Shown: positions 32,251-44,951, counted from the stretch's first letter. The stretch is DNA of 64,000 nt from an uncultured Candidatus Peribacteria bacterium (GCA_964356305.1 CAYHGS010000002.1:3060-67059); one strand, 5' to 3'. Made by a program: numbers and translations. The notes: a model not told the origin generated them from the sequence alone.

Positions 32251-33000
32251 ATGTCCGGACACTCTAAATGGCACAATATTCAGGCTCGAAAGTCGGTTAC
32301 TGATGCTAAAAAAGGTCAGTCTTATTCAAAACACTCAAAGCTGATTGAGGTAGCCGCAAGGGGCGGTGGCGATATCGTAACAAATGCAACGCTTCGCTCC
32401 GCTGTTGAACGTGCCAAGGCTGATGGCGTACCAAACGCCAATATTGAACGATCTATCAAGAAAGGTACGGGTGAGCTAAAAGATGACACTGTTATTACCG
32501 ATGGGCTCTATGAAGCTTTTGGTCCTGCCGGAACCGTTTTGCTGGCTGAGGTATTAACGGATAATAAAAACCGATCGCTCCAGAGCATCAAACTTATTTT
32601 ACAAAAAAATGGTGGCGCCATTGGTGAATCCGGTACGGTTGCGTGGATGTTCGATAAGGTTGGATTGATTGAGGTGGATCTTGGCGCGGGAAAAAATGCT
32701 GAAGACATCGAACTGGCGGCTATAGATGCCGGCGCAAGTGACGTGAGCGTCGAGGAAGGTTATGTTGAGGTTCGTACTGAACCCTCCAACTTACACGCTG
32801 TTAAAAAGGCACTGGAGACGGCTGGCTGCACCGTGAAAAAAAGCGAGATTACCTACCTCCCAAAAAATACACTCAAAGTCGCGGATGTCGAAAAGGCGAA
32901 ACAGATTTTACATTTGATTGATTTGCTGGAAGAAGATGATGATGTGACAAATGTGTTCAGCAACTTTGAGGTGGCGGATGAGATCGCGGAGATGGTCTAA
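32251..33000 (+). CDS. yebC: YebC/PmpR family DNA-binding regulator
   Basis: MSGHSKWHNIQARK N-terminus and full-length family similarity. Confidence 0.9.
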   Translation: MSGHSKWHNIQARKSVTDAKKGQSYSKHSKLIEVAARGGGDIVTNATLRSAVERAKADGVPNANIERSIKKGTGELKDDTVITDGLYEAFGPAGTVLLAEVLTDNKNRSLQSIKLILQKNGGAIGESGTVAWMFDKVGLIEVDLGAGKNAEDIELAAIDAGASDVSVEEGYVEVRTEPSNLHAVKKALETAGCTVKKSEITYLPKNTLKVADVEKAKQILHLIDLLEEDDDVTNVFSNFEVADEIAEMV

Positions 33001-33018
33001 AGCGTTGGCGCTAAGCCA

Positions 33019-33224
33019 TTATTCGACCAACTTATCGAGTGCATGATATGCTGCTTCATATTTAGTGACGATTTTTTCTCGTTCTGGGCATCCATCACTA
33101 ATGTACGAAGTGCATACCTTTTTTCCATTTCATCCGCGATTAAAACATTCCCAAAATTTGAGAATGGAATAATCGCAGGGCAATATGTATTTCCGGGACT
33201 AAAATGTTCCTTGAGCTTGCTCAA
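33019..33224 (-). pseudogene. decayed paralog of the 183 aa gene at 38516..39067 (internal ~130 nt deletion, frames broken)
   Basis: Nucleotide blocks 33015-33090 and 33104-33221 match 38512-38588 and 38731-38848 at high identity. SKLKEHFSPGNTYCPAIIPFSNFGNVLIADEMEKRYALRTLV and PEREKIVTKYEAAYHALDKLVE* are conserved but lie in different frames. Confidence 0.7.
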
Positions 33225-33582
33225 CCGTAAAAATACCTAATAGATTAACGTACTCCATGAAAGCGACAAGAACCTCATCCGCCGATGCATTGGTAAAATT
33301 CTTATATCCCGAAACTGAGACTTTTCCATCCAGTTGTGAAACGGCCCGTTCATCCGCCTTCGATACCACAGGAATCCCCAACTGCGGGACGAAAGCATCG
33401 CGGAAAATGTCACTAACAAGCTGCTGATCCTCAGAATCTGCTGACTGAATGACAATTTTCCCCTTCTCCATTCGAATGGTACCAATTTCATTACCCTTTT
33501 TACCAGTCTCATCAAGCGCACATACAGAAAGTTGCGTTGAGCTAGTCATTTCCTTATCTTCATGCGCGTCTATAGTATCCAT
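33199..33582 (-). CDS. hypothetical protein (127 aa), immediately downstream of giant protein B; 3' end runs into the decayed repeat
   Basis: ORF with an 18 nt gap after the giant gene stop. There is no similarity to the N-terminus of the 183 aa protein. Its stop lies one frame off the conserved SPGNTYCPAIIPF block. Confidence 0.5.
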   Translation of the reverse strand: MDTIDAHEDKEMTSSTQLSVCALDETGKKGNEIGTIRMEKGKIVIQSADSEDQQLVSDIFRDAFVPQLGIPVVSKADERAVSQLDGKVSVSGYKNFTNASADEVLVAFMEYVNLLGIFTVEQAQGTF

Positions 33583-33600
33583 ATATTTTTTAGTAATAAA

Positions 33601-44574: not shown

Positions 44575-44590
44575 TTTTTGTTTCTATTTT

Positions 44591-44917
44591 TTATTTTGTA
44601 TCATTCTCCTCAAGACTTTTGAGTAAATTTTCCTCAGCCTGCGTCTCATTAACCTCGGATACTCCCTCAATTTCTTTTATATATATTTTCCACACCTCAT
44701 CCAGCTTCCTCTGTACTCGTAGAAGTTTTTCTTCATCATCTTTCAGGGCATCGTTTAAAAGCTGCTTCAAGTCTTCTTCTGACTGTTGAATTGCCGTTAT
44801 CATTTCCTGCTGCTGGGTTTCGGTAAATGTGGCAATTTTTGTAGCAAGGTGCTCCTTCATTTCCGGGGATATGAGAAGACTTTTTTGGATGAGTTGAGAG
44901 AGTGAATTTTCAGGCAT
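44591..44917 (-). CDS. small acidic helical protein (108 aa), first gene of the giant-protein operon
   Basis: ORF 16 nt upstream of giant gene A. Paralog-like to 38157..38516. Confidence 0.55.
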   Translation of the reverse strand: MPENSLSQLIQKSLLISPEMKEHLATKIATFTETQQQEMITAIQQSEEDLKQLLNDALKDDEEKLLRVQRKLDEVWKIYIKEIEGVSEVNETQAEENLLKSLEENDTK

Positions 44918-44942
44918 ATGGGTGCATAAAAAGTATCGTGTA

Positions 44943-44951
44943 AGTATACCA
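44943..44951 (-). promoter_or_regulatory. extended -10 element TGGTATACT for the giant-protein operon
   Basis: The reverse complement of agtatacca lies 26 nt upstream of the ATG at 44917. The same 9-mer sits upstream of the TrmB-like gene. Confidence 0.45.

Follow-up and report, generated by a model that had tools for sequence, protein, structure and literature searches.

The 64,000-nucleotide (nt) stretch of DNA analysed here (the window; uncultured Candidatus Peribacteria bacterium, GCA_964356305.1, CAYHGS010000002.1:3060-67059) carries on its minus strand a compact locus that encodes two giant proteins, A2 and B2, each accompanied by small proteins. We consider it an even call that the two giants of this locus belong to a mosaic and hitherto undescribed family of giant proteins resembling polymorphic toxins or effectors, in a lineage labelled Gracilibacteria. 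The comparison of related loci establishes that the family is modular and mosaic, that close relatives diverge at a sharp breakpoint, that the small gene A3 is linked to a kinase tail, that a displaced remnant of A3 lies at the other end of the locus, and that the tail of A2 is related to protein kinases. The likeness to polymorphic toxins is drawn from the C-terminal breakpoint, the tail-specific downstream genes, a cassette made of the kinase and its partner, the displaced remnant, and a Zeta_toxin tail in one relative. Export, membrane insertion, toxicity, immunity and a target, be it a host or a competitor cell, are inferred.

Gene content of the locus

A preliminary description of the window, made from the sequence alone, had reported eight co-directional open reading frames (ORFs) in this region. 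All eight lie on the minus strand at the coordinates it gave, and both of the overlaps it described occur in the sequence (TAATG at 38516, ATGA at 38157-38160). Rather than eight genes, however, they are now interpreted as six genes, one gene split by a nonsense codon and one remnant. The features on which the argument depends are as follows (aa, amino acids).

A1: 44917-44591, minus strand, 108 aa, acidic (pI 4.5), predicted helical partner protein
A2: 44574-39109, minus strand, giant protein of 1821 aa
A3: 39067-38516, minus strand, 183 aa
B1: 38516-38157, minus strand, predicted helical partner of 119 aa, distant member of the A1 family
B2, whole gene: 33601..38160, minus strand, 1519 aa, interrupted by a TAA at 37861-37863
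B2a: 38160-37861, minus strand, 99-aa ORF, 5' piece of B2
B2, downstream piece: 37797-33601, minus strand, 1398-aa ORF
TAA splitting B2 in frame: 37861-37863, minus strand, Ser in the homologs P0012 and P0010
B3: 33582-33199, minus strand, acidic protein of 127 aa encoded 3' of B2
B4: 33224-32997, minus strand, 75-aa ORF with a TTG start, in A3-remnant DNA
Remnant of an A3-like gene: 33014..33221, minus strand, underlies the "75-aa ORF" B4 and adjoins yebC

A rare family with a sharp C-terminal breakpoint

A word-based search of 5.8 billion proteins for close homologs of A2 returned, besides A2 itself, two sequences, P0002 (1806 aa) and P0003, the latter from a source labelled "Candidatus Gracilibacteria bacterium". 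The pattern of conservation between A2 and P0002 is sharply discontinuous: when scored per window of 100 aa, their identity is 82-96% up to residue ~995 and 11-33% thereafter. The same discontinuity is visible in the DNA of one related locus (L001), which aligns with the window at 86-87% nucleotide identity from the DHH gene to codon ~1003 of A2 (window position ~41566) and is then unalignable until yebC. Within the first 980 codons of A2, the window and this locus differ at 247 codons synonymously and at 103 non-synonymously, which points to purifying selection on the N-terminal half of A2. The three closest homologs of A2 have three different extreme C-termini, and the tails identified in the giants are of the following types.

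HExxH domain plus kinase: A2, P0029 and P0042
Kinase alone: P0030
Zeta_toxin (36.7 bits, cutoff 22.3), with a Fic-like motif recognized by eye: P0031
APH-like: P0060
PP2C-like: P0051
Other types, unlike each other: P0002 and P0003

The Zeta_toxin giant P0031, whose Fic-like motif reads HFFSDGCGK, is encoded at 492-6355 of its locus (L012) and is directly followed by a gene for a 317-aa HD_4 protein resembling RelA/SpoT hydrolases, possibly an enzymatic antidote.

The wider family was explored with an exhaustive HMMER search, in which a profile of A2 residues 1-1000 was compared with 1.8 billion representatives of 50%-identity clusters (about 15 billion proteins). It retrieved 32 representatives, all of them giants of 1135-4659 aa but for three short sequences (106-152 aa), so that the family, with a few dozen cluster representatives, is rare in public data. 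The giants share a core motif, AWxxYxDMxDPxDxxxNxSDExWDxIxDEVVxTAVTMPxxMGxG ... FHGGGxxWGK, which corresponds to A2 residues ~735-860 and is followed by Gly/Ala-rich hydrophobic helices. Distant members come from metagenome-assembled genomes labelled Deltaproteobacteria, UBA10199 and "STL-UBA1", with several paralogs per genome; the giants with the core motif in four such loci (L014, L016, L018 and L011) are 3000-4600 aa long and carry TPR and FHA domains, with at least three paralogs in JAXMHH01. A search with the A2-family alignment found no member among the GTDB representatives, the JGI metagenomes or IMG/VR, no protein of the locus has an above-threshold match in Pfam, NCBIfam, PHROGs or PADLOC, and our literature search revealed no paper describing the family.

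A3 accompanies the kinase tail and has left a displaced remnant

Four distinct loci have a gene for an A3 homolog directly 3' of the kinase. These are the window, L006, L007/L008 and L010; in L010 the two make up a free-standing cassette, in which a kinase of 457 aa (E 7e-55 to the A2 tail) and the A3-like gene overlap by 4 nt. A3 is absent from the locus of P0002, the tail of which is not a kinase; there, no more than 18 nt lie between the giant and yebC. On the strength of this linkage, which is what the data show directly, we regard A3 as the predicted cognate partner of the kinase tail; it would then be immunity- or antitoxin-like. A3 has no relative in Pfam or the PDB, and its family was not found in the JGI metagenomes.

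The remnant next to yebC is composed of two segments of A3, nt 38848-38717 and nt 38582-38511, retained at 89-92% nucleotide identity. Together they cover the 3' two-thirds of A3, including TAATGGCT, the junction of the A3 stop and the B1 start, and a 134-nt internal deletion shifts the frame. Judged from its sequence, the 75-aa ORF is not a gene but an incomplete, decayed copy of A3. Together with the intact A3, the remnant makes up a pair of direct repeats on either side of the B1-B2-B3 segment; they are a recombination scar. The last seven codons of B3 also come from the remnant, read in another frame, and B3 is unrelated to A3. Hence the C-terminal module that the small downstream proteins had been thought to share dissolves, on the one side, into the scar (the 75-aa ORF) and, on the other, into an unrelated protein of 127 aa.

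The interval between A3 and yebC, occupied by the B module in the window, is empty in L007 and contains another core-family giant in L006. This second giant (6784-11538 of L006, 1584 aa, E 8e-26 to the core family) is flanked by the A3-like gene and yebC, lacks a partner gene on its 5' side, and shows by eye a nucleotidyltransferase-like GS...DxD motif in its C-terminal part.

Two interchangeable versions of the central region

No similarity between A2 and B2 was detected by BLASTP, by hhalign, or by family HMMs (hidden Markov models) of the N-terminus and the core, and homology of the two giants was rejected on these grounds. The link between them is provided by P0042, which occupies the chromosomal slot of A2 in GCA_026395555.1. 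Residues 158-741 of B2 match this protein (E 7e-36) as well as P0040 (E 2e-26), and P0042 is composed as follows.

Similar to A2 1-105: 38% identity
Similar to B2 249-758: 25% identity
Similar to A2 1020-1801: 57% identity, HExxH plus kinase tail

A2 and B2 are thus linked because P0042 is a mosaic of an A-type N-terminus, a B-type middle and an A-type tail. The sequences indicate that the central helical and hydrophobic region of these giants comes in two interchangeable, non-homologous versions. The "two parallel modules" of the preliminary description are accordingly not copies of one another; the parallel is architectural, and it is real only by way of the mosaic relatives.

Domain architecture of A2

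Four segments can be delineated in A2; the coordinates in DNA are given for the three that are discussed below.

Segment 1: residues 1-~760, conserved helical N-region, the first ~105-160 aa of which are common to the closest relatives
Segment 2: residues ~735-965, family core motif and Gly/Ala-rich hydrophobic helices (41683..42372, minus strand, aa ~735-964, with AWGEYESMMDVNDKWYIISDK and, after it, the Gly/Ala-rich helices)
Segment 3: residues ~1120-1460, HExxH domain (40195..41217, minus strand)
Segment 4: residues ~1500-1790, eukaryotic-like protein kinase (39208..40077, minus strand, aa ~1500-1789)

Hydropathy analysis of A2 and B2 revealed no hydrophobic signal at either N-terminus and places the Gly/Ala-rich hydrophobic segment of A2 at residues 763-860 plus 941-964 and that of B2 at residues 426-520, in agreement with the earlier view of giants that lack a signal peptide and have a central hydrophobic segment. 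The region in A2 is marginally hydrophobic, with Arg and Glu inside.

The kinase that had been suspected in A2 is borne out by the comparison of profiles. Taken alone, A2 scores below the Pfam cutoff for Pkinase (E 0.008, 16 bits, cutoff 31.7). The profile built from three kinase members matches 44 PDB entries with E<=0.01, all of them protein kinases, the best at 2.5e-5. A2 exhibits a GGMGS glycine loop, an AAIK lysine, an HGDVKEGN catalytic loop, IDIS in place of DFG, and GRAID, and in the three aligned kinase members the elements GGMG, AIK, HGDxKExN, IDxxP and GRAxD are conserved; these motifs are kept in P0029, P0030, P0042 and the free-standing kinase of L010. The evidence supports the prediction that the A2 tail is an active-looking protein kinase of the Ser/Thr type.

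The HExxH domain is a different case. Its motif VRHELQHI and two downstream Glu residues (E203 and E247 in the numbering of the alignment) are invariant in five homologs with 29-60% identity, so that the proposed motif stands, but the fold has no detectable relative in Pfam or, by profile search, in the PDB. We consider this domain a candidate zincin-like hydrolase with a putative fold.

B2 is a single gene interrupted by a stop codon

The ORFs of 99 aa and 1398 aa had been taken for a giant and a separate in-frame piece. P0012 (1519 aa, encoded on a contig of 73,114 nt) is identical to the B2 of the window except for a Ser at the TAA, P0010 (on a contig of 4,823 nt) likewise has Ser at this position and is otherwise identical to the window, and in the homolog from L010 one ORF runs across the junction of B2a and B2. 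By these comparisons, the two ORFs are one 1519-aa gene cut by a single TAA. The difference between assemblies at this site reflects a polymorphism in the population or else an error in the consensus. The true start of B2 is possibly Met19. In the numbering of the fused protein, B2 is composed of the following segments.

Segment 1: B-type N-terminus
Segment 2: residues 158-741, B-type middle and hydrophobic region
Segment 3: Pro/Thr linker
Segment 4: residues ~876-1118, HD-like domain
Segment 5: residues ~1235-1519, conserved C-terminal domain with no assigned fold

The HD hydrolase proposed for B2 is reflected in a conserved set of motifs. EH, LHDxGK, QH and DxxSYT are common to B2 and P0027, and the N-terminally truncated P0062 keeps the last three but lacks the first His. 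Four libraries gave weak matches, all confined to the motif (HD, E 0.03; HDIG, 0.013; Cas3-HD, 0.0013; phrog_6931, 5.7e-4), and the profile of three sequences found no HD protein in the PDB, so that an assignment to the HD phosphohydrolases (PF01966) is weakly indicated. The last domain of B2 is conserved and always follows the HD domain. The H-Y-E set of an ADP-ribosyltransferase that had been proposed for it was rejected: P0062, in which this domain has its only homolog, has Thr at the proposed His (FNTGTSS compared to IYHGTSS), and the domain gave no PDB match at E<=10 and no Pfam match.

For B3 we found neither a homolog nor a family match in Pfam, NCBIfam, PHROGs or PADLOC. It is a candidate for the cognate partner of the B2 tail.

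A family of small helical partners

The similarity of the small proteins encoded upstream of the giants, asserted in the preliminary description, is not detectable between A1 and B1 themselves by BLASTP. However, a 104-aa protein from L010 is related to both (E 1.7e-10 to B1 and 1.4e-5 to A1), and through this intermediate their sequences can be placed in a single family. Its alignment (nine sequences, end to end) shows a conserved N-terminal LLxSxExK, a D-x-V-W-K and a C-terminal [DE]xxLLxxL. A1 has no relative in Pfam and the profile of A1/B1 has none in the PDB.

A partner gene is always located directly 5' of a giant. Those of the A1 type go with the A2-type N-terminus in L001, L005, L006, L007/L008, L010 and L012, whereas those of the B1 type, found in the window and in L010, go with the B2-type N-terminus. 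The order of small helper and giant, the conservation of which had been suggested as a check, is kept in at least six distinct related loci. In L010, a peptidoglycan-binding motif was also suspected in a 342-aa protein; it received no support and was dropped.

Genomic setting

The locus is a chromosomal hotspot bounded by a DHH-family gene and yebC, and the slot between them is kept in at least four distinct loci. On one flank the genes are of the housekeeping kind (yebC, the malic enzyme gene, the gene of an SLH protein, hisS and tsaD), and so are those on the other (the DHH-DHHA1 gene, recJ, miaA, the L10 gene, and genes of pyruvate dehydrogenase and lipoate metabolism). The guanine-plus-cytosine (GC) content of the locus (0.43-0.48) equals that of the rest of the window (0.37-0.48, mostly 0.41-0.48) in the comparison that had been recommended, and the idea of horizontal acquisition judged by composition was dropped because the locus matches its surroundings.

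The following motif may serve the operon.

Extended -10-like motif TGgTATACT: 44951-44943, minus strand, 26 nt 5' of the A1 ATG, without a -35 element

The motif is present where a promoter had been placed (44943-44951), but our consensus promoter scan does not list it, since it has no -35 element, and matches of the scan in this region are no commoner than in shuffled sequence. As a single motif match, it is a candidate for the operon promoter.

The genetic code of the organism is standard, as no real gene of the window contains an in-frame TGA, and TGA, a rare stop, ends 4 of the 39 long ORFs. Code 25 (UGA = Gly), hinted at by the Gracilibacteria label, is ruled out on this basis. Read from the sequence in this way, the unrecoded TGA sets the organism apart from the code-25 Gracilibacteria/Absconditabacteria, despite the NCBI label of the source of the homolog.

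Several other genes deserve mention. The ORF at 30866-32197 (plus strand, 443 aa, without a Pfam match) is a conserved neighbour of yebC that adjoins the locus; it has a counterpart in L007 (E 2e-205) and another in L010 with a weak match to SLT (lytic transglycosylase), and it might be functionally tied to the locus or might be merely syntenic. At 15783-17775 (minus strand), a 439-aa Ice-binding-like protein is encoded immediately ahead of a sortase, and the pairing hints at a protein that sortase anchors to the cell surface. Close to the window start, 395-1348 (minus strand) encodes a stand-alone protein of the Fic/DOC family (E 2.6e-24). The sensor histidine kinase at 11186-14017 (plus strand, 943 aa), with MEDS, PAS, GAF, HisKA and HATPase domains, represents elaborate signalling for a supposedly reduced genome. 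The region 54675-61791 contains genes for the E1 alpha, E1 beta and E2 subunits of a pyruvate/2-oxoacid dehydrogenase, lipoyl synthase, lipoate-protein ligase and aquaporin; together with the SLH-domain protein at 27610-29076, these genes bear on the lifestyle of the organism, which the preliminary description had assumed to be host-dependent. In the related locus L009 (1-8026), one gene codes for a surface protein that exceeds 2892 aa and has SLH, Big_5, fn3 and CarboxypepD_reg domains; a gene for a 562-aa protein lies between it and the kinase giant P0059.

What the giants may do

The comparative evidence, including the sharp C-terminal breakpoint, backs the likeness to polymorphic toxins or translocated effectors that had been noted earlier. 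If the giants are indeed of this kind, the acidic, helical A1/B1 partner (~105-120 aa) would chaperone its giant or target it, and the conserved Gly/Ala-rich helical region would insert into a membrane. Flexible linkers would connect the conserved N-terminal part to exchangeable enzymatic "payloads" at the C-terminus, which in A2 would comprise the HExxH domain and the Ser/Thr-type kinase and in B2 the HD-like domain and the conserved C-terminal domain. These enzymes would act inside a cytoplasm, and in the producer they would be neutralized by a payload-specific downstream protein, A3 for the kinase and B3 for B2. The giants may accordingly be secreted or take part in the manipulation of a host.

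Several observations weigh against this interpretation. The 64-kb window contains no secretion or injection apparatus, as already remarked in the preliminary description, and neither do the flanks of the related loci; the giants also have no known trafficking domain and no signal peptide, and their matches in Pfam, NCBIfam, PHROGs and PADLOC stay below the thresholds. The distant members of the UBA10199 type have TPR domains towards the N-terminus and FHA domains towards the C-terminus, and one of them has a PP2C-like domain; such domains are typical of cytoplasmic signalling and suit a resident membrane protein acting in cis no less than a secreted one. These members have no A1- or A3-like neighbour genes. 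Since no small gene follows P0002, not every giant has an immunity gene of its own. Between the window and L007, the A1 proteins show 74% identity, yet the N-termini of the corresponding giants are only 38% identical; therefore, the supposed interaction of A1 with the N-terminus is not reflected in tight co-variation. B2 is interrupted by a nonsense codon in this assembly. AlphaFold2 models computed from shallow alignments reach a predicted local distance difference test (pLDDT) score of 40 for A2 1100-1821 and of 44 for B2 700-1398, so that no fold is supported structurally. Finally, the kinase family and the Zeta and Fic-like domains are also classic intracellular toxins of toxin-antitoxin systems.

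The main alternative, which we regard as possible, though rather unlikely, is that the giants are not secreted but stay in the producer, anchored in its membrane, as part of a system for intracellular conflict, toxin-antitoxin action or signalling. Their hydrophobic hairpin would then be the anchor, with both ends of the protein in the cytoplasm, the kinase, HD, Zeta, PP2C and FHA domains would act in cis, as an abortive-infection-like effector or in Ser/Thr phospho-signalling, A3 and B3 would be antitoxins or regulators, and A1 and B1 would be sensors or chaperones. Such a role agrees with the missing signal peptide and the lack of a nearby export apparatus, with payloads that require ATP or metal ions and hence a cytoplasm, with the FHA, TPR and PP2C-like domains of distant homologs, and with the classic toxin-antitoxin architecture of Zeta, Fic-like and kinase domains encoded beside small genes. 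P0060 even has a weak match to TCAD9, known from conflict systems dependent on nucleoside triphosphates (24 bits, below the cutoff), and defence systems, too, typically have diversifying effector tails. On the other hand, PADLOC is blank but for the weak Cas3-HD motif match, and the site is a conserved one amid housekeeping genes, with no recognisable defence island. Moreover, a displaced tail accompanied by the remnant of its old partner, together with free-standing cassettes, makes up the classic pattern of secreted polymorphic toxins, and the marginal hydrophobicity of A2, with its Arg and Glu, resembles conditionally inserting toxin helices rather than a constitutive anchor. It is very improbable that the locus is the remnant of a mobile element or phage, encoding either polyvalent proteins that enter a cell along with DNA or proteins of the tape-measure kind. 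In phages and conjugative elements, polyvalent proteins are likewise giant, mosaic, multi-enzyme proteins with hydrophobic segments, and the giants resemble them; the one weak PHROG match, phrog_6931 on the HD motif, points in the same direction. However, the 64 kb include neither phage nor conjugation genes, there is no other PHROG match, the scan of IMG/VR found no relative, and both the GC content, equal to that of the surroundings, and the conserved position between DHH and yebC speak against such an origin.

If the giants are secreted as toxins or effectors, the manner of their export can be considered further. They might be substrates of a system like the type VII secretion system (T7SS), of the WXG100/LXG kind, with A1 and B1 as WXG100- or Lap-like targeting factors that guide the N-terminus of the giant to an EssC-type ATPase encoded elsewhere. 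This variant of the secreted-toxin model we consider improbable. The order of genes is that of LXG loci (a helical protein of ~100 aa, a toxin with a helical N-terminus and a polymorphic C-terminus, and a downstream partner), small helical targeting factors adjoining Esx effectors have been described (PMC13622651) in an arrangement that matches, the C-terminal tail motif of A1 and B1 is conserved, and the sortase and SLH proteins of the window give the envelope a monoderm-like look. Against it speak the lack of a Pfam LXG or WXG100 match and of a W-x-G motif in any of the proteins, the lack of a PDB relative for the A1/B1 profile, the absence of an EssC- or FtsK-like ATPase from the window, and the failure of our literature search to turn up a paper linking the T7SS to Patescibacteria as producers. 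Loci resembling the type IV secretion system have been reported in bacteria of the candidate phyla radiation (PMC7427843), and export by such a system is another possible route. It is tempting, though doubtful, to view the targeting partner of ~105 aa, the N-terminal domain and a self-inserting hydrophobic translocation region as a novel delivery module, which would introduce exchangeable payloads (kinase, zincin, HD, Zeta and Fic) into other cells and would be used by the Gracilibacteria-labelled lineage and, more distantly, by bacteria of the UBA10199 type.

Should the giants prove to be secreted effectors, they would provide the first handle on how the uncultured and little-known Gracilibacteria-labelled lineage attacks or manipulates other cells. 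The N-terminal module and the partner protein could then be used for mining effectors, the kinase and its inhibitor would be a pair for biochemistry, and the recombination hotspot would record an arms race. A genuine delivery module would further mean that this part of the bacterial tree has its first defined export signal and polymorphic effector family. Even if the giants stay in the producer, the locus reveals three families new to Pfam and the PDB (the A1/B1 partner, the core motif of the giants, and A3) and an unusual mosaicism, in which the sequences point to a central membrane region with two interchangeable, non-homologous forms.

Comparison with known systems

Among the known proteins that resemble the giants are the TPR/FHA giants of the UBA10199 type, annotated as "hypothetical proteins". 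These have the core motif and the subsequent Gly-rich helices in common with A2 but reach 3000-4600 aa, carry TPR near the N-terminus and FHA near the C-terminus, and occur as several paralogs in a genome. With the translocators of the type III secretion system (T3SS), such as SseC, YopB and IpaB, the giants share the lack of a Sec signal, an N-terminus rich in coiled coils, a bilobed hydrophobic hairpin and a small acidic upstream partner. They differ in that no T3SS genes are present, in that the partner is not a class II chaperone of the TPR type, and in that translocators have no enzymatic tails; the match of the hydrophobic segment of B2 to SseC (PF04888; E 0.005, 17.0 bits, cutoff 30.2) probably reflects composition. 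Eukaryotic-like Ser/Thr kinases serve as bacterial effectors or toxins, and the A2 kinase resembles them in keeping the glycine loop, the beta3 Lys, the HxDxKxxN loop and the metal-binding Asp. It is, however, very divergent, with HGD for HRD and D-I-S for DFG, and it is always paired with A3.

The gene order resembles that of the LXG toxins of the type VIIb secretion system (T7SSb) with their Lap/WXG100-like partners, which also comprise a small upstream helical protein, a toxin with a helical N-terminus and a polymorphic C-terminus, and a downstream neutralizing gene. In sequence, however, nothing here matches LXG or WXG100; the giants exceed such toxins 3-4 times in length and possess a central hydrophobic region, and no EssC is encoded in the window.

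A close analogy is with the polymorphic toxin systems (Rhs, CdiA, LXG and MafB types), a concept developed by Zhang, Aravind and colleagues. The pattern of breakpoint, tail and remnant is known from Rhs, LXG and contact-dependent inhibition loci. Here, too, a conserved N-terminal region precedes enzymatic tails that diverge abruptly among close relatives, a small tail-specific gene lies directly downstream, free-standing cassettes and displaced remnants occur, and the domains are of the toxin type (Zeta toxin, kinase, HExxH, HD and Fic-like). On the other hand, the locus lacks RHS, PAAR, LXG, haemagglutinin repeats, PT-HINT and a signal peptide, and neither Pfam nor the PDB contains relatives of its N-terminal module, hydrophobic core, small partner or A3. 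Toxicity and immunity are putative for this locus, and the middle region of the giants comes, as judged from the mosaics, in two non-homologous, swappable versions. Thus, in its organization the locus is of a known kind, that of a polymorphic toxin locus, built from a partner family, an N-terminal module, a core motif and an A3 protein that have no described relatives, and it is the swap of the central region between giants that makes it unusual.

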